From the sequence record MW630116.1: a DNA stretch of 64,000 nt, one strand, 5' to 3'. The notes under the pieces are model-generated. The model did no database searches. It had not been told where the DNA came from and worked only from the letters and a program-made list of their open reading frames with translations. How positions within the stretch are numbered: position 1 is the stretch's first letter; each line of letters begins with the position of its first letter. Shown piece after piece: positions 2,819 to 49,441 of the stretch. The translations under genes and the position numbers were made by a program. This DNA comes from Escherichia phage vB_EcoM-ZQ3.

Positions 2819-4387
2819 TTAGATGCCTTTTACATATACACGGCGGAAGTAAGCGTTCTTACCAAGACTGTTCAGGATAGACGGCATACCGGACTGGATG
2901 CGAGCACCTGGAGCCTGCAGGGAACTTTCAGCAAACGGGTTAACACCGATACCGTAACGAGTTTTAAAGCCCATTACCGGCTGGAAGTTCTTAGGATCGG
3001 AACCACGCAGTGGGGTAAGTGCAACGTAAGGAGCATAGTAAATACCTGCATCCATTTCGTTAGCGCCTTTGTAACCAACGGTGAAGTAATCCTGTTTAGC
3101 ATACTGGTCGATGTATACGCGGTATTTACCACCAAGTACACCGGCAAATACAGACTTAGTAGTGTCGGTATTAAAACCAGAAGCCAGACCCTGTGCAGCG
3201 TAAGAAATACCAGTATCAACCGAAGCCAGTACGTTAACTACGTTACGGGAAGCGATAATGAAGTTACCTTCACCACGACCGGTTTGACGAGCAATTTCAA
3301 CTGCTTCTTTATCAATCTGGAACAACAGAGCTTTAAAGCTTTCACCGGCCCAACGAGCACCACGGATATCAATCGGGTCCTGGAAGTCAAATACACCAGC
3401 TTTAGAACCAACGATATTAGTCATACCAGATTTACCAACCTGAGCGGAGTAGTTAATCCAGTCAACAACTTCACGGTTGATTTCCAGCATAATTTCAGTA
3501 GCAAGAATACCGCTCAGTTCAGCATCAGCATCCATACCATGTACTGCACGGAGGTCTTGTGCCAATTCGATGGAGTAAGCTGCTTTCAACTGACGAGATT
3601 TAGCTTCAATAACTTGTTTGTCGATACGGAAGCCCATTTCGTTCCACGGGTTGTCGGTAGAACCATTGAAGCCTTCCTGAAGTTCAGCGATAGAAGTAGC
3701 CATACCTTCAGCGATTTCTACCAGTGCACCAGCTTCCATTTGTTTCTTAATTTCAGCATCTAATTTAGTTGCATCGGTAGCGCTAGCATCAATTGTTACT
3801 ACAGCGGAAGCTTGTAGATACACAGTACCGGTGTCCTGGAAGAAGTGAGTATAGATATCACCTACAACGGTTTGTGTGCTAGCAGCCAGAGCTGGGAATT
3901 TCTTAGCAGCACCCTGACCAGAGAACATCGCGTCTGGAGCATACATCGGATGGAAAGCTTCTTTAGCGTCAGCAGCGATAGGGTCTTTACCATATACTGC
4001 ACGGAGAGCAAATACCTGACCGGTAGGGCTGTTCATAGGCTGAACACCACAAATATCAAAAGCGATCAGATTAGGAATAGCACGACGAACCATACCCATA
4101 ACTGCCGGCCCAATTTGGGTTACTGCACCAGAGGTTTGACCTGCTGCGATGTTCTGAGCATTATAACCATGGTCCCCACCAATTTCAGCTTCGGTCAAGA
4201 AAGAACCAAATGCCTGAGCGATTTTCTCGTCTTTATATTCAGGGGATACTTCGAAATCTTTTTCCTGGTTTTCGAAGATTTTAGCGATAATAGCCTGCTT
4301 GCTATTAGCGATTTCCGGCAGGCCTTCACCTTCCAGCAGTTCTTTCCATTTGTCTACGAGCTGAGCTTTAGTTTTGATAGTAGTCAT
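2819..4387 (-). CDS. 23: major capsid protein gp23
   Basis: 522 aa; N-terminal propeptide region followed by HK97-like fold sequence recalled from T4 gp23; synteny 24-23-22. Confidence 0.97.
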   Translation of the reverse strand: MTTIKTKAQLVDKWKELLEGEGLPEIANSKQAIIAKIFENQEKDFEVSPEYKDEKIAQAFGSFLTEAEIGGDHGYNAQNIAAGQTSGAVTQIGPAVMGMVRRAIPNLIAFDICGVQPMNSPTGQVFALRAVYGKDPIAADAKEAFHPMYAPDAMFSGQGAAKKFPALAASTQTVVGDIYTHFFQDTGTVYLQASAVVTIDASATDATKLDAEIKKQMEAGALVEIAEGMATSIAELQEGFNGSTDNPWNEMGFRIDKQVIEAKSRQLKAAYSIELAQDLRAVHGMDADAELSGILATEIMLEINREVVDWINYSAQVGKSGMTNIVGSKAGVFDFQDPIDIRGARWAGESFKALLFQIDKEAVEIARQTGRGEGNFIIASRNVVNVLASVDTGISYAAQGLASGFNTDTTKSVFAGVLGGKYRVYIDQYAKQDYFTVGYKGANEMDAGIYYAPYVALTPLRGSDPKNFQPVMGFKTRYGIGVNPFAESSLQAPGARIQSGMPSILNSLGKNAYFRRVYVKGI

Positions 4388-8821: not shown

Positions 8822-10804
8822 TTAACCACCTACAGCACCAATCAGTTCGTCGAAATCAGCACCAGTTGCTGTTGCTACAAAGTTCAACGTAATATAATTT
8901 ATCGAGCGGGAAGGTTGTAAGTAGAAAGTAGCTACAAATTCATTACGGTCGATAACTGCTGGGGTGTTATTGGTAGTATCACAAACAACTTTAAAGTTAT
9001 ATACACCACCGAGAGCTTTAATACCCTGTAGATATTGAGAAGTCTCTGTACGGAAAGAAGAACGGGTAAATGCGTTGTTCAATTCAAACAGGCGATATTT
9101 AGATGCTGAACCAATGTTCGTTTTAACCATATTGAACAAACGACGAACGTTAATACGGTCAAATGGTGAAGGAACGGAAGTGGCAGTTTTATCACCATAC
9201 AGAACATATCCATCACCGCCGGTACCAGTAACAGGGTTAATAGCTTCCTGATACAAACGATCACGTTGTGGTTGACGAGTTTCAATTGCAAGCTTAATAA
9301 CGTTAAGAATTTGTCCACGGTTATAACCGGCCGGAGACATCCAAGGCTGAGAAATATTGTCTGTGCGAGCACAAAGACCTGCAATATCAGCAGCTAACGG
9401 AACCCAACGATTCACGTCATTATATTTGTCATATTGATATTTATAGTTACCGTCAATAGCAGCATAAGTAGAACTTACATTAAAGTTATTATCAGTGTAA
9501 GTTCCTGATGCAGTACGCCAATCAACCAGATTATCAACTGCACGATTAACAGGAATACCGACTATAGTTGAACGTGGTGGTGAGCAAAGAACCAAGCAAT
9601 CTTGGCGAGAATCACCAATTGCTACAACATGTTTCTGAACTGTAGAAGCAACTTCTAAAGATTCACCTGCACAAGAACCGGCAATAAACAACTGCGCATT
9701 AACAGATTCGCGGTCAGCAAACAAATCCCAAGCTTCCATTAAATCACCAGCGTCAACCGTTTCATTAGATGATAAGCCACCACCCAGTTTGATTACGCCA
9801 GAGAAACCTTTTGGCCAACCTTGCGCAGTAGCGAAAATATAATTGCTTGCGCCTTTAGCAAAGAAATCATCAATGAAGATATTGCTACCATAAATATCTC
9901 GTTCACCACGTTTAGTAGAAAGAACTACGCTCTGGACTACAGCATCGTTACGACGAACGATAATTGCATATTGGTCATCAGTTTGTGGGCCATATCCAAA
10001 GATTGCTTTAGCAGTAGATGCACGAGTACCGCCATCAGGATAAATTTTTAACTGAGCTGAAGCACCTTTGTCATAGTCTGCTTTAGATACGATTTCAATT
10101 TCGAGCTGGTCGCCAAGTTCACCAGGATAAAGAGCAACTACGCCTGGGACACCATATTTTTTAATAGATTCTTGGAAAGTTAGAGAAGTAATAGCTTCTT
10201 CAGAAGTTTCAACTTCAGTTAACAGAATACCCGAATCGGTTACGATAGAACCAATTGTAATAACACCAGAAAGTCCAGAAGAAGAACTGGCAACTTCGGC
10301 GGTCCAATTAGAACCCAATGCCGGATATTCATTAATTTCTTTTGCACGAGCAATAATTTTACCGGTTGGGATGTAAATGTTAAGAATTTTACCATCGACA
10401 TCAACTGAAGTGACATAACCATCTGCTTCAACAGTTTCGGTCAAATACTTAACGATAATTTTATCACCAACTGCATAGTTACTACCAGTAGCAGAGATTG
10501 TGAATTCAATATTGCCTGCTACAGGAGATGAGTTCTTAGCAGTAGCACGATCAACTGCGCGTACAACACGAAGGTCATTACCATATTGAAGGAAGTTCAT
10601 AGCAGACATGAAATAATCTGCTGTATCCGTATTAGGAGTACCAAACATATCAACTAATGCAACTTCATCAGTGATTTGTTTAATCTGGAATGCCGGTCCC
10701 CATTGGAATTTTCCAGCCAGGGCAGCGGTACCAGTGGAGTTATTAACTACAGTACTCTGTACGGTAGTTTCTTTGAGCTCAACGCCCGGAGAGAGAAGTG
10801 CCAT
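8822..10804 (-). CDS. 18: tail sheath protein gp18
   Basis: 660 aa; length and synteny as T4 gp18. Confidence 0.95.
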   Translation of the reverse strand: MALLSPGVELKETTVQSTVVNNSTGTAALAGKFQWGPAFQIKQITDEVALVDMFGTPNTDTADYFMSAMNFLQYGNDLRVVRAVDRATAKNSSPVAGNIEFTISATGSNYAVGDKIIVKYLTETVEADGYVTSVDVDGKILNIYIPTGKIIARAKEINEYPALGSNWTAEVASSSSGLSGVITIGSIVTDSGILLTEVETSEEAITSLTFQESIKKYGVPGVVALYPGELGDQLEIEIVSKADYDKGASAQLKIYPDGGTRASTAKAIFGYGPQTDDQYAIIVRRNDAVVQSVVLSTKRGERDIYGSNIFIDDFFAKGASNYIFATAQGWPKGFSGVIKLGGGLSSNETVDAGDLMEAWDLFADRESVNAQLFIAGSCAGESLEVASTVQKHVVAIGDSRQDCLVLCSPPRSTIVGIPVNRAVDNLVDWRTASGTYTDNNFNVSSTYAAIDGNYKYQYDKYNDVNRWVPLAADIAGLCARTDNISQPWMSPAGYNRGQILNVIKLAIETRQPQRDRLYQEAINPVTGTGGDGYVLYGDKTATSVPSPFDRINVRRLFNMVKTNIGSASKYRLFELNNAFTRSSFRTETSQYLQGIKALGGVYNFKVVCDTTNNTPAVIDRNEFVATFYLQPSRSINYITLNFVATATGADFDELIGAVGG

Positions 10805-35842: not shown

Positions 35843-36130
35843 ATGAAAACCTATAAAGAATTTATATCACCTGTTGCTAACGTTTCTACTCTGACCGAAG
35901 CAACCCTTACTTCCGAAGTTATTAAAGCAAATAAAGGACGTGAGGGTAAACCAATGATTAGTCTGGTTGACGGCGAAGAAGTAAAAGGTACTGTTTACTT
36001 AGGGGATGGATGGTCTGCTAAGAAAGATGGCGCTACTATTGTTATCTCTCCGGCTGAAGAGACTGCACTGTTTAAAGCTAAGCATATTTCTGTAGCTCAG
36101 CTTAAAATTGTTGCAAAAACTCTTCTGTAA
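35843..36130 (+). CDS. internal protein (IPI-like) with capsid-targeting N-terminus
   Basis: 95 aa; N-terminus MKTYKEF resembles T4 internal-protein capsid targeting sequence MKTYQEFIAE; position after 57B as T4 ipI. Confidence 0.7.
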   Translation: MKTYKEFISPVANVSTLTEATLTSEVIKANKGREGKPMISLVDGEEVKGTVYLGDGWSAKKDGATIVISPAEETALFKAKHISVAQLKIVAKTLL

Positions 36131-36199: not shown

Positions 36200-36463
36200 A
36201 TGAAAACGTATAAAGAATTTATCGCTGAATCTCAATCTTCTACTCTGTCAGAGAACTACGAATCATTCTCTTACAACAACGACCATGCAATGTTCTACGA
36301 CCGAAACATCGGTACTTATGTCCATGTGTGGGGTGTTAAAGATGGTAACGTAGTTGTTAAGAAAAACTCTAAAGAAGGCAATGGTCGTGGCCAGGTAAAA
36401 ATTACCAGCAAGAAAGCTATCCAAGCTTACGTCGATTATGTTAAACGCGAAGCTGGTATTTAA
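36200..36463 (+). CDS. internal protein-like small protein with capsid-targeting N-terminus
   Basis: 87 aa from MKTYKEFIAE-SQSS; gp21-type cleavage context after Glu10. Confidence 0.6.
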   Translation: MKTYKEFIAESQSSTLSENYESFSYNNDHAMFYDRNIGTYVHVWGVKDGNVVVKKNSKEGNGRGQVKITSKKAIQAYVDYVKREAGI

Positions 36464-38114: not shown

Positions 38115-38188
38115 TAATTTAAACGAAGTAAATTAAGTGCTCTATCCAAATAATAAATACTCCTATATTTTATAGGAGATAATTGGTA

Positions 38189-38854
38189 ATGAGCATTTGT
38201 AAACATTGTAATATGGAATTTGATATTTCTAATAAACCTAAAGGATGGATGGCTAACCACACTAGATGGTGTAAATCCAACCCTAAATTGGAATTGTATA
38301 AAGAAAGTTCTAAATCAGCCATTGCAGCAATGAATAAAGCACGTATAGCTTCAGGTAATTTAAACCAGTATGTTGTATCTAAAAAGACTGGTGTCCCTGT
38401 AGTAATTTCGGAAGAGACTAGACAAAAATTGTCAGCCGCTTCATTAGGTAGAGAACACTCTGAGGAATCTAGAATAAAAATATCTAATGCTCGGAAAAAA
38501 TGGTTGAATGAAAACCCTGATAAACATCCTTGGAAGAAAAATACAAAATTTAAATCTGTGCCTTGTGAATTTTTGAAATCTAAATTAATAGAAAACGGAA
38601 TTTCATTTATTGAAGAATACCAACCGGTTAAAAACCGAGCGTATTGCACGGATATTGCTTTAATAGATAAAAAGATTATTATTGAAGTTAATGGAAACCA
38701 ACATTACTCCAATCCTAAGAAAAAGATTTTGGCCCCTTATTATAAAGAACGCCATGATATTATAAAATCATTAGGATGGGAAATATATGAACTTCATTAT
38801 GCTGAAGTTTATAAAGAAGATATTGTAAATAATTTAATTGCCTCTATAGTGTAA
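38189..38854 (+). CDS. putative homing endonuclease (Zn-finger / NUMOD3-like / C-terminal Vsr-DUF559-like nuclease domain)
   Basis: 222 aa from MSICKHC; CxxC...H..C N-terminus, NUMOD3-like ETRQKLSAASLGREHSEESRIKISNARKKW, C-terminal IIEVNGNQHY...D...GWEIYEL; located in tRNA cluster like T4 segB. Confidence 0.6.
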   Translation: MSICKHCNMEFDISNKPKGWMANHTRWCKSNPKLELYKESSKSAIAAMNKARIASGNLNQYVVSKKTGVPVVISEETRQKLSAASLGREHSEESRIKISNARKKWLNENPDKHPWKKNTKFKSVPCEFLKSKLIENGISFIEEYQPVKNRAYCTDIALIDKKIIIEVNGNQHYSNPKKKILAPYYKERHDIIKSLGWEIYELHYAEVYKEDIVNNLIASIV

Positions 38855-38915
38855 TGGATAGCATATAATCGTTCTAAGGTTAATGGTGAGAGTTCAAATC
38901 TTTCTAGAGGCACCA
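38840..38915 (+). tRNA. tRNA-Arg (anticodon TCT)
   Basis: acceptor GCCTCTA/TAGAGGC, anticodon stem TAATC/GGTTA loop GTTCTAA, T arm GAGAG-TTCAAAT-CTTTC, encoded CCA; overlaps last 15 nt of upstream ORF. Confidence 0.8.
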
Positions 38916-38933: not shown

Positions 38934-39278
38934 ATGAAAGGCAATATTTATTTGGTAGTTCATGATTTAACGTTTTATTTTAACGAACAGGATACAGTTA
39001 TTTCCGACCGGTTGATTAATTCGTTATATCAACACGCTGATTACGTTTATTTTCAAAATGAATTCGGACATTGGAAGTTTCTTAAAAACCGTTCCGGGTT
39101 AACTAGTTTTGAATACTTTGACCGTAAAGACCTTTTAAACGAAATTCCATTACAACATCGGTTCCAGAAACGCGAATCACTATACTATTGTCGCCATATA
39201 CCAAATGCTGAATGTGTTTATGAAGCGATTAATCTATGGCGTCGGCGTCGAGAGCAAATTGATGATATGCCAAAATAA
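38934..39278 (+). CDS. hypothetical protein
   Basis: 114 aa from MKGNIYLVVHDL; RBS GAGGAA; longer ORF start lies inside tRNA-Arg. Confidence 0.5.
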   Translation: MKGNIYLVVHDLTFYFNEQDTVISDRLINSLYQHADYVYFQNEFGHWKFLKNRSGLTSFEYFDRKDLLNEIPLQHRFQKRESLYYCRHIPNAECVYEAINLWRRRREQIDDMPK

Positions 39279-39279
39279 G

Positions 39280-39588
39280 AAGCCGGGTCGCTACCGGCAA
39301 GACGTCGGACTGATGTTCCCTGAGTAAGGATTGGTCTTAATAAATCTTTACGATTTGTTAATACCCCCTTACATCACAGCAGAAACGGCGCACAGAATTA
39401 TCGATTCGAGGAAATATCTTTGCCGTAAGCCGAGTAGCGTTTTTGACGGAACGTTCGGATATGGTCGAGATATGGCCTTTTAAAAATATTGAGTAGCGTC
39501 AACTGCTTAATAACCGGGTTCGAATCCCGGCGTTTCGTACAAACACTTACCTAGTAGGTGGAAACCCGACAAGGTTGCCGCAAGGCAT
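39280..39588 (+). ncRNA. ORF-free structured region, candidate small stable RNA(s) or decayed tRNA genes
   Basis: about 310 nt without ORF; hairpin GCCGG-GTCGCTA-CCGGC at 39282-39298; tRNA-like T arm CCGGG-TTCGAAT-CCCGG (39514-39530) with acceptor-like pairing CGGAACG/CGTTTCG but no canonical D/anticodon arms. Confidence 0.3.
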
Positions 39589-39617
39589 AGCCCCTTCCGA
39601 AAGGTTGGGGCTTTTTT
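39589..39617 (+). terminator. intrinsic terminator
   Basis: AGCCCCTTCC-GAAA-GGTTGGGGCT followed by TTTTTT. Confidence 0.55.
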
Positions 39618-39618
39618 G

Positions 39619-39626
39619 TATAAATA
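39619..39626 (+). promoter_or_regulatory. late promoter TATAAATA upstream of IP-like gene
   Basis: exact TATAAATA 36 nt upstream of ATG 39662. Confidence 0.45.
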
Positions 39627-39661
39627 TAGTAAACAATAAACCTACTTTCTAAGGACCATCA

Positions 39662-40282
39662 ATGTATACTTTTAATGAATTTTTAGCCGAAACGGAAGTA
39701 ATCACCGAAGCCGGCGTACGTATGACAAAAGAGAAATGGCAAGCTGCTTACGATGCTATTTCTGGTACAAAAACTAGTACAGAGTTTTTCAAAAACGTTC
39801 AAGCCATGTACGGTATCGACACTTCTAGCCAAAAAGAATATTACAGAGCTTCTAAAGCATTCAAAGATATTGTTAGTGGTGGTGTTTCTGCTAAATCGGG
39901 TTCGCCTAAAGTAAAACCTGCTCCTACCATTCCTAAACCTGCGACCCCTAAAGCAAAACCTGAGCCTAAGCCTGAAGTAAAAGCAACTCCTAAAGCTCCT
40001 GCTCTTAAGTTTGATACTTCTAGCCTGGAAAAAAAATATAAACAACTATCTTCGCTTGTTCGTGATATTGAATCCGATACATCTTCACTCGTTCGTGAAT
40101 TCAATATTCTTCGTAATGGCCAACATATCAACAACCTTGATACTCCAGACCTTTATCGTCTTTATTTGACTATCGAAGGTTTGAAGTATACTCAACCACT
40201 TCACGATGCGATTAAAGAAAAACTTCGTCAGGCAGGTCGTTTGGCTGCTGACGCTGCTCAGTATGCAAAAACTCGTAAGTAA
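39662..40282 (+). CDS. internal protein-like protein with capsid-targeting N-terminus and Pro/Lys-rich linker
   Basis: 206 aa; N-terminus MYTFNEFLAE-TE (variant of MKTYQEFIAE); low-complexity KPAPTIPKPATPKAKPEPKPEVK segment. Confidence 0.55.
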   Translation: MYTFNEFLAETEVITEAGVRMTKEKWQAAYDAISGTKTSTEFFKNVQAMYGIDTSSQKEYYRASKAFKDIVSGGVSAKSGSPKVKPAPTIPKPATPKAKPEPKPEVKATPKAPALKFDTSSLEKKYKQLSSLVRDIESDTSSLVREFNILRNGQHINNLDTPDLYRLYLTIEGLKYTQPLHDAIKEKLRQAGRLAADAAQYAKTRK

Positions 40283-40285
40283 AGA

Positions 40286-40305
40286 ATGGGGACTTCGGTC
40301 CCCAT
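40286..40305 (+). terminator. hairpin ATGGGGAC-TTCG-GTCCCCAT
   Basis: perfect 8-bp stem with UUCG loop immediately after stop of 39662 ORF; weak U-run. Confidence 0.4.
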
Positions 40306-40334
40306 TAGGGGGTCTATAACTTACTAAAAAAGTT

Positions 40335-40370
40335 GTTTACTTCTTCCCTAGTTGTGTTACTATAGTCCTA
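40335..40370 (+). promoter_or_regulatory. early promoter cassette
   Basis: GTTTAC-N17-TACTAT then conserved leader TTAAAACATGAGGAG. Confidence 0.5.
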
Positions 40371-40391: not shown

Positions 40392-40895
40392 ATGAGTCTT
40401 TACACTGAACTGAATAAAAAATCTGAAGAATCCGCTGAAACTATTTTTAAAAACGTGCAAAAGCGTATTTTAGAAAAGATGTATAACACTGCAGCTAAAG
40501 GTGAAAAATCTTGCCGGTTTCCGATGAGGTGTTCTTCCGATTTATGCGCAAATACTATTGAATGGCTGGAAAGTGAAGGTCTTACGGTAGAGAAAAACCC
40601 GGCGTCTTCTATTGACAGTGAATCATATATTAGTATTTCTTGGGATAAATCAAGGGTAGAAGAGAAAGATGGTGATTGGGTTGTAGATGTTAAAACTTCT
40701 GATGGCGGACGTTCTGTTGAAGTTTCAGCTGTAGTTAAAGGTACCCACGAACAAAGGACTTGGGGTTGGGGTGGTGAAGAAAAAGAAATTGTTCTTAGTG
40801 TGATTGCCAGGTCAACTAGTAATAAAATTGCACAAAGCATCATTGACGCTGCAATTGCTGAAGCAGAAAAAATTTGCAAAATTAAAAATAAATGA
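40392..40895 (+). CDS. hypothetical protein
   Basis: 167 aa; GAGGAG RBS. Confidence 0.55.
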   Translation: MSLYTELNKKSEESAETIFKNVQKRILEKMYNTAAKGEKSCRFPMRCSSDLCANTIEWLESEGLTVEKNPASSIDSESYISISWDKSRVEEKDGDWVVDVKTSDGGRSVEVSAVVKGTHEQRTWGWGGEEKEIVLSVIARSTSNKIAQSIIDAAIAEAEKICKIKNK

Positions 40896-43190: not shown

Positions 43191-43496
43191 ATGAGTAAGA
43201 TTATTGAAATTAAAGTACCAGAGTTTAATGATGCTAAATCCGCTTCAGATGCAATTTATAAACTTCTGAATCAAGCTGAACGTATCGAAGAAGAAGCAAC
43301 AAAGATCGCAGACCAATATGCCGTATCATTTTCTGTAGGTGATTATGGTAGTGGTCGTACTTATTATCCTAAGGGTGAAATTGTATCCCAGTGGATGAAA
43401 GATGAAATTGAAAATAATGGTGGTGATGTTAAACGTGAAGGTAATGGTTACGTTATTACTGAAGGTGCTTGGGTTTCGTCTTCTTCGATGTGCTAA
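43191..43496 (+). CDS. small protein, paralog 1 of C-terminal GxWVSSSxxC family
   Basis: 101 aa; ends GAWVSSSSMC; RBS AAGGAA. Confidence 0.55.
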   Translation: MSKIIEIKVPEFNDAKSASDAIYKLLNQAERIEEEATKIADQYAVSFSVGDYGSGRTYYPKGEIVSQWMKDEIENNGGDVKREGNGYVITEGAWVSSSSMC

Positions 43497-43505
43497 GGAA
43501 TCATT

Positions 43506-43778
43506 ATGTCTAAAGAACAAACCGAACTGGCTGAAGCCGTAGCAAAAATCTATGCAGCTATTGAGGCTGCCAAAGAAATTGCTGATAAACAAAACACAAC
43601 ATTCGACTTGTATCCGGCTTATGGTATGGGTGGAACCTATCATTCACCCGGACAACTTAAAGCCGATCTTGAACGTTGTACAAAAAACGGCTATGCTGAA
43701 TGGGCTGACGTTTACCAATACGACTACAACCTGAGCCTCGAAACTGGTGGTTGGATTGCATCTTCTCATACTTGCTAA
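43506..43778 (+). CDS. small protein, paralog 2 of C-terminal GxWVSSSxxC family
   Basis: 90 aa; ends GGWIASSHTC; preceded by TGCTAAGGAA..ATG. Confidence 0.55.
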   Translation: MSKEQTELAEAVAKIYAAIEAAKEIADKQNTTFDLYPAYGMGGTYHSPGQLKADLERCTKNGYAEWADVYQYDYNLSLETGGWIASSHTC

Positions 43779-43787
43779 GGAAACCAT

Positions 43788-43985
43788 ATGTCTCGTGAAT
43801 TAGATTGTGCTGTACGTACCGCAGTAGCTGCTCTGGAAAACCTGTTCCAAATTGCAACAGAAGAACGCGAAGAAGTTACATTGTGGATTGAAGATAACGC
43901 AGGTCTGAATCTCCAGGACGCGATCTCATTATCCAATAATAGCATTACTGTTCAAGGCTGGGTATCATCTAGTTATTCTTGCTAA
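43788..43985 (+). CDS. small protein, paralog 3 of C-terminal GxWVSSSxxC family
   Basis: 65 aa; ends QGWVSSSYSC; preceded by TGCTAAGGAA..ATG. Confidence 0.55.
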   Translation: MSRELDCAVRTAVAALENLFQIATEEREEVTLWIEDNAGLNLQDAISLSNNSITVQGWVSSSYSC

Positions 43986-47774: not shown

Positions 47775-47808
47775 GTAATAAATACCTCCTATAAACGTGG
47801 GAGGTATT

Positions 47809-48297
47809 ATGAATATATTTGAAATGCTTCGTAATGACGAAGGTCTTAGACTGACTTTATACAAAGACACCGAAGGCTTTTGGACGATTGGCATAGGCCA
47901 TTTAGTAACAAAGAACCCGTCTTTAGCCGTAGCTAAAGCTGAACTTGACAGAATGATCGGTCGTAAATGCAACGGTACAATTACCCTTGATGAGGCTGAA
48001 AAGCTATTTAATGAAGACGTTGATAAAGCCGTTCGCGGAATCTTGGGTAATGCTAAACTTAAACCGGTATATGATTCTTTAGATGCAGTTCGTCGATGTG
48101 CATTGGTCAATATGGTCTTCCAAATGGGTGTAGCAGGCGTCGCAGGTTTTACTAATTCTCTTCGTATGCTTCAACAGAAACGTTGGGATGAAGCGGCAGT
48201 AAATCTAGCCCAATCTAAATGGTATCGTCAGACACCTAATCGCGCGAAACGCGTAATCTCAACATTTAAAACAGGAACTTGGAAAGCGTATATATGA
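47809..48297 (+). CDS. e: lysozyme (endolysin)
   Basis: 162 aa from [31 protein letters not shown]; catalytic Glu11/Asp20/Thr26 context conserved as in T4 lysozyme. Confidence 0.95.
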
Positions 48298-48575
48298 AAA
48301 CATATAGTGAATTTTTATCAGAATCTATTCTTAACGAAGCTACTGACACATTTGCAACTAAGCTAGGTGCAGCTTTGGTTGAAGCTGAAAGTCTATTAGC
48401 ACGTATTTCTGAACTTGCTAGTAAGATAGATACTCGCAAATTTGAGCGCACCAGTGATATCGTTAAGCTTGAAGCCTTGTTGCGTATGTGTGATAAACCG
48501 GAAGAAATCGCTAAGAACGGCTCGCTGATGAAACAACGTCTTGAAAAATATATTTCAGGCGCTTCAGAAAAATAG
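48294..48575 (+). CDS. internal protein-like protein with capsid-targeting N-terminus
   Basis: 93 aa from [11 protein letters not shown]; ATGA overlap with e stop. Confidence 0.6.
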
Positions 48576-48576
48576 T

Positions 48577-48615
48577 GTTTACTTCCTCCAAGGGTTTTGA
48601 TACTATACATTCATC
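48577..48615 (+). promoter_or_regulatory. early promoter cassette
   Basis: GTTTAC-N18-TACTAT; spacer CCTCCAAG pairs with downstream CTTGGAGG containing the denV SD. Confidence 0.5.
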
Positions 48616-48633
48616 AACTACTTGGAGGAAATT

Positions 48634-49047
48634 ATGACTCGTATCAATTTAACACTTGTTTCTGAACTGACCGACCAACATCTTATGGCTGAGTATCGTG
48701 AATTACCACGCGTATTTGGTGCAGTCCGTAAACATGTTCAAAACGGTAAACGTGTAAAGGATTTTAAAATCTCCCCGACATTTATCTTAGGCACAGGTCA
48801 TGTAACATTCTTTTACGACAAACTCGAATTTTTACGTTTACGTCAAATCGAGCTAATCGCTGAATGCTTGAAACGTGGTTTCAAAATCAAGGACACGACT
48901 GTCCAAGATATTTCCGACATCCCTGCCGAATTTCGTAATAATTATGTCCCGTCCGAAGCGTCCATTGCGATAAGTCAAGCACGCTTAGACGAAAAAATTG
49001 CTCAACGTCCTACTTGGTACAAATACTATGGTAAATCAATTTACTAA
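48634..49047 (+). CDS. denV: endonuclease V (pyrimidine dimer DNA glycosylase)
   Basis: 137 aa from [34 protein letters not shown]; matches recalled T4 DenV. Confidence 0.92.
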
Positions 49048-49078
49048 GGAAAAAGGTTGCGATGGTAAAGCTTAAACA

Positions 49079-49118
49079 GTTTACGCTTAAGTATTAATAT
49101 GGTATAATTACTCTATCA
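49079..49118 (+). promoter_or_regulatory. early promoter cassette (-10 TATAAT)
   Basis: GTTTAC-N18-TATAAT. Confidence 0.5.
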
Positions 49119-49138
49119 AAACAAACAAGGAAACAAAA

Positions 49139-49441
49139 ATGAAAACATATCAAGAATTTATTACTGAAGCGCGAGTGAGTGCAGGTAAATTAGAAGCCGC
49201 TATAAATAAAAAGGCCCATTCATTTCACGATTTGTCCGATAAAGACCGTAAGAAACTTGTAAGCCTTTATATTGACAAAGAGCGTATTCTCGCTCTTCCT
49301 GGCGCTAATGAAGGTAAACAGGCCAAGCCTTTGAATGCTGTTGAAAAGAAAATTGATAACTTTGCTTCTAAATTCGGTATGTCTATGGATGACCTTCAGC
49401 AAGCGGCTATCGAAGCAGCTAAAGTAATTAAAGGTAAATAA
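49139..49441 (+). CDS. internal protein (IPII/IPIII-like)
   Basis: 100 aa from MKTYQEFITE-ARVSAGKLEAA; canonical capsid-targeting sequence. Confidence 0.7.
   Translation: MKTYQEFITEARVSAGKLEAAINKKAHSFHDLSDKDRKKLVSLYIDKERILALPGANEGKQAKPLNAVEKKIDNFASKFGMSMDDLQQAAIEAAKVIKGK

Follow-up and report, generated by a model that had tools for sequence, protein, structure and literature searches.

Sequence evidence for an unannotated family of candidate internal head proteins in T4-type phages, encoded behind the tRNA unit of Escherichia phage vB_EcoM-ZQ3

We analysed a stretch of 64,000 nucleotides (nt) from Escherichia phage vB_EcoM-ZQ3 (sequence record MW630116.1), in the following called the window, and took a closer look at the open reading frame (ORF) at positions 39662–40282, which follows the tRNA transcription unit. 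Judged from its sequence, the product of ORF 39662 is probably a packaged internal head protein of the T4 type, which would be processed by the prohead protease gp21 and which comes from a family never annotated as such. New is this unannotated family (PHROG 2280), whereas the class of internal head proteins bearing a capsid-targeting sequence (CTS) is already known and its mechanism is unchanged. With this assignment an unlabelled family would receive a name; it is encoded in 142 sequenced T4-type phages, among them many candidates for therapy. The original prediction for this locus had proposed an insulated, capsid-targeted cargo protein with its own terminator and late promoter. Speaking for this proposal, homologues of nine genera conserve the determinants of the CTS as well as the late promoter and the hairpins on either side, but the upstream hairpin is not the gene's own and late control is atypical for genes of internal proteins (IPs).

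Predicted capsid-targeting sequence and processing

The ORF and its N-terminal features are as follows (an arrow marks a predicted gp21 cut):

39662–40282, plus strand: ORF of 206 amino acids (aa), ATG start, TAA stop (stop codon included), PHROG 2280, predicted internal head protein precursor
39662–39691, plus strand: residues 1–10, MYTFNEFLAE, CTS with the first predicted gp21 site L-A-E↓T
39692–39709, plus strand: residues 11–16, TEVITE, spacer ending in the second predicted gp21 site I-T-E↓A and resembling ...STITE↓ATL of T4 IPI

The ORF with its length and its MYTFNEFLAE start is present as originally proposed, and its translation begins MYTFNEFLAETEVITEAG. By every sequence criterion available the first ten residues are a CTS. 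Using BLOSUM62 and the T4 CTS MKTYQEFIAE as reference we scored all 1546 Met-started decapeptides from the six frames of the window, and MYTFNEFLAE reached a score of 33 and rank 5 of 1546. The four decapeptides above it, at 49139 (47), 36200 (47), 48294 (41) and 35843 (38), all belong to the other IP-type ORFs of the window and the next one below scored 22, so that the CTS, which had been called divergent but recognisable, is set apart by a gap of 11 points. A regular expression for the CTS motif gave 4 matches in the window compared to 0.055 in shuffles.

The functional positions of this sequence have been mapped in IPIII with amber suppressors, showing that targeting depends mainly on residues 4 and 7 and processing on residues 8 and 10, and Asp at position 10 blocks cleavage with targeting unaffected (PMC9026906). 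ORF 39662 carries F4 (as does T4 IPI), F7, L8 and E10 and thereby the determinants mapped in IPIII. The pattern [F/Y]4, [F/I]7, [L/I]8 and E10 is kept in members from Mosigvirus, Dhakavirus, Winklervirus, Kanagawavirus, Tegunavirus, Marfavirus, Karamvirus and Jiaodavirus (one register earlier in UTI-K1), although the overall identity drops to ~30% in some members. The N-termini of the homologues read MKTYNEFLNE↓S, MLKFKEFISE↓A, MLNFNEFITE↓S, MLQYNEFLKE↓S, MLKFKDILTE↓S, MLNFKEFIAE↓S and MNFKEFLNE↓A, and more distant metagenomic members mostly retain the motif as well (MLKFNEFLAE↓G, MNFKEFLKEEALNE↓A and MISFNEFVDGNLITE↓S).

The original prediction had placed the cut after Glu10 (AE↓TE). L8-A9-E10↓T11 indeed fits a predicted site, and all nine members from phage genomes keep this first site as [L/I]-x-E with S, A or T behind it, but the second site I14-T15-E16↓A17 is better conserved, with Glu16 in the context [I/L/V]-x-E followed by A or S being invariant in the family alignment. 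The mature N-terminus may therefore be Ala17 instead of Thr11. Members without the spacer of 4–8 residues (CHI14, Marfa and UTI-K1) show a single merged site, and on the basis of the invariant Glu16 and the merged sites we predict cleavage at Glu10, Glu16 or both. The precursor (pI 9.54, 12% Lys) is as basic as the rest of the family, all members having a pI of 9.3–9.8. The predicted mature form would comprise 190–196 residues of ~21 kDa with a pI of 9.7–9.8, a net charge of +12 to +14 and 13% Lys, a basic character matching the IP class, as the T4 IPs have a pI of 8.9–9.5.

The four other CTS-bearing ORFs of the window start at 35843 (IPI homologue), 36200, 48294 (RB69 p127 type) and 49139 (IPII homologue). 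They share propeptide class, genome and strand with ORF 39662 but encode only 87–100 aa and are single-domain, and three of the four (the homologues of T4 IPI, T4 IPII and RB69 p127) fall into PHROGs named internal virion or head protein. The remaining one, the 87-aa ORF 36200–36463, adjoins the IPI homologue, has a perfect CTS (MKTYKEFIAE↓S) and belongs to PHROG 13302 ("unknown function"), making it another unlabelled candidate for an internal protein. At 47797–49441 the IP complement is mosaic with an RB69-type p127 IP between e and denV, a T4-type IPII after denV and no IPIII; the near-identical relatives ESh15 and p000v carry IPIII, unlike the window.

Domain architecture and family distribution

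An AlphaFold2 (AF2) model was built with an alignment of 12 sequences and divides the remaining protein into three parts (pLDDT: predicted local distance difference test):

39710–39880, plus strand: residues 17–73, N-terminal three-helix domain (RMTKxxW...YGIDTSSQKEYY...), AF2 helices 23–31, 39–50 and 57–71, pLDDT ~80
39881–40009, plus strand: residues 74–116, disordered, cationic linker rich in Pro, Lys and Ala, pLDDT 29–46 for residues 74–111
40010–40279, plus strand: residues 117–206, conserved C-terminal three-helix bundle, AF2 helices 120–151, 162–175 and 178–204, pLDDT ~88

The model thus agrees with the proposed Pro/Lys-rich linker between two helical domains, as helices at 23–71 and 120–204 surround the disordered residues 74–111. 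The N-terminal domain is common to relatives with other C-domains and to ORF149c of RB69 (hhalign probability 91%). The length of the linker varies even between near-identical phages, giving forms of 202, 206 and 208 aa, and the longest run of the Pro/Lys/Ala type in each homologue has a net charge of +1 to +9; no run of this type was detected in the relative P0024. Nuclear magnetic resonance work on T4 has shown that only the lysines of the IPs contact DNA phosphates (PMC3012670), and by analogy the cationic linker makes it plausible that the ORF 39662 protein is a DNA-associated resident of the head. Most of the conservation lies in the C-terminal domain, which holds 41 of the 58 invariant alignment columns (FDTSSL...LVRE...LRN.Q..NNL.TPDLY.LYL..E.L.YTQP), and this concentration favours a specific interaction over simple charge neutralisation. 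Sequence and fold searches with the C-terminal domain gave no informative relatives.

The protein was assigned to PHROG 2280, "unknown function", with E = 1.7e-57, and Pfam, NCBIfam and PDB sequence searches gave no match. Using tblastn we found the family in 142 of 50,697 phage records, all of them T4-type enterobacterial phages and all annotated "hypothetical protein". An exhaustive HMMER profile search of 1.84 billion representatives returned 15 relatives (clusters), all phage-like, and no cellular homologues.

Among the relatives at least three types of C-domain occur, with reciprocal swaps of the N-domain. P0024 and the protein of Jiaodavirus UTI-K1 keep the CTS, the N-domain and the linker but have an unrelated C-domain, and P0026, P0029 and P0030 keep the C-domain but differ in the N-domain. 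Directly downstream of the homologue in fHe-Yen9-01 (~3580–4116) lies a second ORF with a CTS-like start, MLEYSEFLKE, which resembles P0026 and appears to be a tandem paralogue with a different N-domain. T-even phages are described to carry diverse basic proteins sharing only a CTS, and the domain shuffling is in line with the arms race suggested for IPs, though only as an analogy (both PMC3012670, PMC9026906). A bolder reading, which we regard as possible but rather doubtful, would see the family as a modular platform for injected effectors, in which CTS, N-domain and cationic linker deliver interchangeable C-domains and the Mosigvirus/Dhakavirus-type bundle is the part that neutralises one specific target in host defence or take-over. 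If true, late-only monocistronic expression would ensure that the effector exists only as packaged cargo, and the C-terminal bundle would act within seconds of infection, in the manner of IPI* against GmrSD. The domain structure, the conserved C-domain suggesting a specific partner and the natural swap variants offer a practical handle on injected head proteins, and the N-terminus of ORF 39662 would add a second, divergent CTS to the T4 platform for protein packaging and delivery.

Predicted late promoter, flanking hairpins and genomic setting

The following elements surround the ORF:

39275–39394, plus strand: rnaD homologue (T4 stable RNA), 104 of 120 bases identical to annotated T4 rnaD
39401–39539, plus strand: rnaC homologue (T4 stable RNA), 137 of 139 bases identical to annotated T4 rnaC
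39589–39617, plus strand: hairpin resembling an intrinsic terminator and followed by U6 (stem-loop 39589–39612, U-run 39612–39617), GAAA loop, 2-nt U.U internal loop
39619–39626, plus strand: T4-type late promoter core TATAAATA, exact match, one base past the U-run, 43 nt ahead of the ATG
39651–39655, plus strand: Shine-Dalgarno sequence AAGGA, 6 nt before the ATG, read from the sequence
40285–40306, plus strand: stable hairpin of 9 bp with a UUCG loop, beginning 2 nt past the stop codon

The late promoter that had been claimed for this gene is found as an exact match, and its position is conserved, as all nine loci examined show an ATAAATA-type element (NATAAATA) 36–46 nt upstream of the ATG. 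It reads TATAAATA in six of them, GATAAATA in two and CATAAATA in one, the RB69 counterpart has AATAAATA at −46, and the intergenic sequence around the element is otherwise unrelated between the genera. In the window the octamer occurs 18 times against 7.6 expected (2.4-fold enriched), a number reached by 0 of 100 shuffles, and no sigma-70-like site was found on the plus strand between 39331 and 39662. In T4 late transcription, gp55 recognises TATAAATA, located around −10 relative to the transcript start, and a −35 element is not needed. From the exact TATAAATA and this general knowledge of T4 late promoters we infer a late, essentially monocistronic transcript, the promoter call being consensus-based. 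The sequences aagga or aggaa are similarly placed upstream of most homologues, with only a ggac or ggaa core in fHe-Yen9-01 and myPSH1140.

The hairpin with its U-run claimed upstream of the promoter is also present. The 51-nt fold has −21.8 kcal/mol and z = −3.25 with 0 of 200 shuffles folding equally well, although a simple terminator scan missed it because of the 2-nt U.U internal loop. It was further claimed to be the gene's own terminator, which does not hold, as it belongs to the upstream rnaD/rnaC unit. The 79-nt trailer carrying the hairpin is identical to T4 at 69 of 79 positions, but from base 39619 onward only 16 of 43 bases agree, so that the similarity to T4 ends exactly at the last U of the U-run. 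The same hairpin has a perfect 10-bp stem in T4 and is kept in T4, RB69 and HX01, with analogous hairpins ahead of the homologues in JS98, fHe-Yen9-01, Marfa, myPSH1140 and UTI-K1. As T4 keeps it without TATAAATA and without the ORF, it is a conserved feature closing the tRNA/stable-RNA transcription unit. By consensus it is the terminator of the tRNA/rnaC unit and would insulate ORF 39662 from upstream transcription.

Hairpins equivalent to that at 40285–40306 follow the stop codon directly in HX01, JS98, CHI14, Kosakonia 305, Marfa, myPSH1140 and UTI-K1, and most loci combine a G+C-rich hairpin just ahead of the promoter with another just after the stop codon. The downstream hairpin is likely the 3' end or a stabiliser of the late transcript; as it lacks a long U-run, its function as a terminator is only putative. 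About 30 nt past it, at 40335–40363, the sequence GTTTAC-N-TACTAT looks like an early-type promoter of the next gene (40392–40895, PHROG 6869, "unknown function"), though it is below the threshold of our scan.

Late control had been regarded as expected for a packaged protein, which does not agree with the classical IP genes. No ATAAATA is present within 150 nt upstream of T4 ipI, ipII and ipIII or of the IPI, IPII and 36200 genes of the window, and early-looking sequences of the type GTTTAC...TAnnAT were recognised by eye in five of these six genes, with only an imperfect one for ipII. Likewise, none of the four other CTS ORFs of the window has TATAAATA within 150 nt upstream, and three of them show early-looking GTTTAC promoter sequences. 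As the classical IP genes look early, the predicted late-only control sets the PHROG 2280 family apart. An exact TATAAATA is also found at 49201–49208 inside the coding sequence of the IPII homologue, 62 nt past its ATG, where it might drive late transcription of downstream genes.

The 1.2 kb around ORF 39662–40282 are 97–98% identical to complete genomes of the RB69/HX01/JS09 type with ~168–170 kb (e.g., ST0, JS09 and HX01), and by sequence the window is a Mosigvirus-like T4 relative within the Tevenvirinae (RB69/HX01-type). Its gene order is T4-like with 3, 1, 57A, 57B, IPI, trna.4-.2, tRNAs, an ORF at the segB position, tRNA-Arg, rnaD, rnaC, e.x genes, e, denV and IPII. Genes 20–24 lie outside the window, and genes 21 and 22 are described to belong to the core genome conserved among T4-related phages (PMC9026906). 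T4 has neither TATAAATA nor a comparable ORF at the locus of ORF 39662 but a gap followed by e.8/e.7. Read from this alignment, late promoter and ORF 39662 are a cassette replacing T4 e.8/e.7, joined exactly at the 3' edge of the hairpin. In HX01, JS98, CHI14, Kosakonia 305, fHe-Yen9-01, Marfa, myPSH1140 and UTI-K1 the homologous gene always sits between the tRNA cluster upstream and the e.x genes downstream.

The rnaD and rnaC genes, which are the final genes of the tRNA transcription unit and correspond to species 2 and species 1 of T4, respectively, were assigned by alignment to the T4 annotation because Rfam gave no match in this region; rnaC is near-identical to T4 despite the mosaic protein genes flanking it. 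Between tRNA-Arg (38840–38915) and rnaD, direct neighbours in T4, the window contains a 114-aa ORF at 38934–39278 (RB69 ORF150c type, PHROG 3355, "unknown function"). Where T4 has segB, between tRNA-Asn and tRNA-Arg, the window carries a 223-aa ORF at 38183–38854 which, from its weak matches to homing-endonuclease PHROGs (E = 1.6e-5), may be a different mobile endonuclease inside the tRNA cluster. Further downstream three small tandem ORFs at 43191–43496, 43506–43778 and 43788–43985 (101, 90 and 65 aa) share similar W-[V/I]-[S/A]-S-S-x-x-C ends (...GAWVSSSSMC, ...GGWIASSHTC and ...QGWVSSSYSC) and form a small paralogous family.

Proposed pathway, alternatives and comparison with known systems

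For a packaged internal head protein we propose the following pathway. Transcripts of the tRNA/rnaD/rnaC unit made in the early and middle phases would end at the hairpin 39589–39617, and late in infection the RNA polymerase modified by gp55 and gp33 would start at TATAAATA 39619–39626, giving a short, essentially monocistronic mRNA that ends near 40285–40306. The amphipathic MYTFNEFLAE would act as CTS and bring the protein to the prohead, docking it on the scaffolding core of gp22. There gp21 would cut behind Glu10 (L-A-E↓T), behind Glu16 (I-T-E↓A) or at both sites to release the basic mature protein. This protein would stay in the head with the DNA, probably touching phosphates through its Lys-rich Pro/Ala linker, and would be ejected into the next host along with the genome. 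For the time after ejection we guess that the C-terminal bundle interacts specifically with a protein or with DNA to serve early take-over or counter-defence. Also in T4 IPI* is the only internal protein with a known target, the roles of IPII and IPIII being open (PMC9026906).

Several observations weigh against this assignment. Position 2 of the CTS is Tyr where the canonical residue is Lys, positions 2 and 3 being variable in the family, and the fold of the protein offers no functional clue. The promoter and terminator calls are both drawn from consensus, and the regulation of ORF 39662 departs from the archetype since the classical IP genes carry early-looking promoters. Published virion proteomes also add nothing in its favour: the part of the virion tables of the Jiaodavirus ValerieMcCarty available to us contains IPII-homologue peptides but, among the matches listed, no peptide or sequence of a relative of the family, with the presence of such a gene in these phages not being established, and phiR1-RT, for which a virion proteome is published, has no homologue. 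TG1 likewise has none, virion bands of ECLFM1 (Karamvirus) are listed only as "hypothetical" without identifiers, and the Petrov 2010 review of T4 genomes does not mention internal proteins.

The product could alternatively be an accessory or assembly protein of the prohead core (like gp67 or gp68, or with the assembly role of IPIII), which is targeted to the scaffold by its CTS and is then degraded or expelled. The predicted late-only expression resembles the scaffold genes and not the classical IP genes, the protein is all-helical with long helices, head assembly is slowed in IPIII mutants (PMC9026906), and the C-domain contains two further [I/V]-x-E motifs (VRE146 and IKE186), of which V-R-E is invariant. 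Nevertheless we consider this role unlikely. T4 and most T4-type phages lack the family (present in 142 of 50,697 records), which therefore cannot be a core assembly component, a relation to T4 gp22, gp67 or gp68 is not detectable (hhalign probability ≤0.2%), and only four candidate cleavage motifs exist overall with two of them being N-terminal. Moreover, the strongly basic mature protein and its cationic linker suit a residence with DNA.

That ORF 39662 encodes a late protein which remains unpackaged in the cytoplasm, its CTS-like N-terminus being a non-functional relic of recombination between IP-type cassettes, appears to us quite improbable. IP genes are mosaic and shuffled, relatives swap N- and C-domains (P0024, P0026, P0029 and UTI-K1), the canonical K2 of the CTS is lost in ORF 39662 and proteomic support was not found, all of which would agree with such a relic. 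But a relic would decay, whereas the four key positions and the junction of Glu with a small residue are kept in lineages that are otherwise ~70% diverged, and the propeptide is the very part that non-homologous IPs of the same window have in common.

Very improbable is a functional replacement of IPIII, the large basic internal protein, in phages without ipIII: size, pI and Lys content are near-identical to T4 IPIII, the window has no IPIII homologue (no tblastn match) and hhalign matches the first 25 residues including ...KDxW past the CTS, but the probability is just 28% with the match confined to the propeptide region, and an either/or substitute is rejected by the presence of both proteins in ESh15 (99% identical homologue plus IPIII), p000v, AnYang, JS98 and Marfa.

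In comparison with known systems, a packaged internal protein encoded by ORF 39662 would be most similar in its bulk properties to T4 IPIII (193 aa, pI 9.54 and 13.5% Lys compared to 206 aa, pI 9.54 and 12% Lys). Both proteins begin with a CTS of 10 residues that ends in [I/L]-x-E, and both genes belong to the plastic tRNA-e-denV part of their T4-type genomes. They differ in that no homology exists beyond the propeptide (25 columns at the above hhalign probability of 28%) and the proteins fall into separate PHROGs, that IPIII has neither the Pro/Lys/Ala linker nor the two-domain architecture, and that ipIII has an early-looking promoter without TATAAATA within 150 nt. With T4 gp22, gp67 and gp68 the protein would share the features of late-expressed, helical and gp21-cleaved prohead-core components, but the scaffold proteins are cut into many fragments, ORF 39662 has few candidate sites, and there is no sequence relation. 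Homology to the scaffold was rejected with hhalign probabilities of 0.2% for gp22, 0.1% for gp67 and 0.1% for gp68.

RB69 ORF149c/ORF148c occupies the same locus right after the rnaC terminator and shares a CTS (MKTYAEFLTE↓AA) and the homologous N-domain (hhalign probability 91%, as given above), but its C-domain has diverged to the P0022/P0023 type and its promoter reads AATAAATA. ORF149c and ORF148c (RB69 9429–9991, minus strand) look like one diverged homologue apparently split by a frameshift, possible explanations being a pseudogene and an old sequencing error.

T4 IPI and the ORF 39662 protein both begin M-x-T-F-x-E-F, and the longer propeptide of IPI is cut at ...ITE↓A, similar to I-T-E16↓A-G in ORF 39662. 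Their mature parts are unrelated, IPI* being a 76-residue alpha/beta fold in contrast to the two predicted helical domains and linker described here. IPI* inhibits the type IV restriction enzyme GmrSD and thus provides the earlier example of an injected IP directed at a dedicated anti-defence target (PMC3012670).

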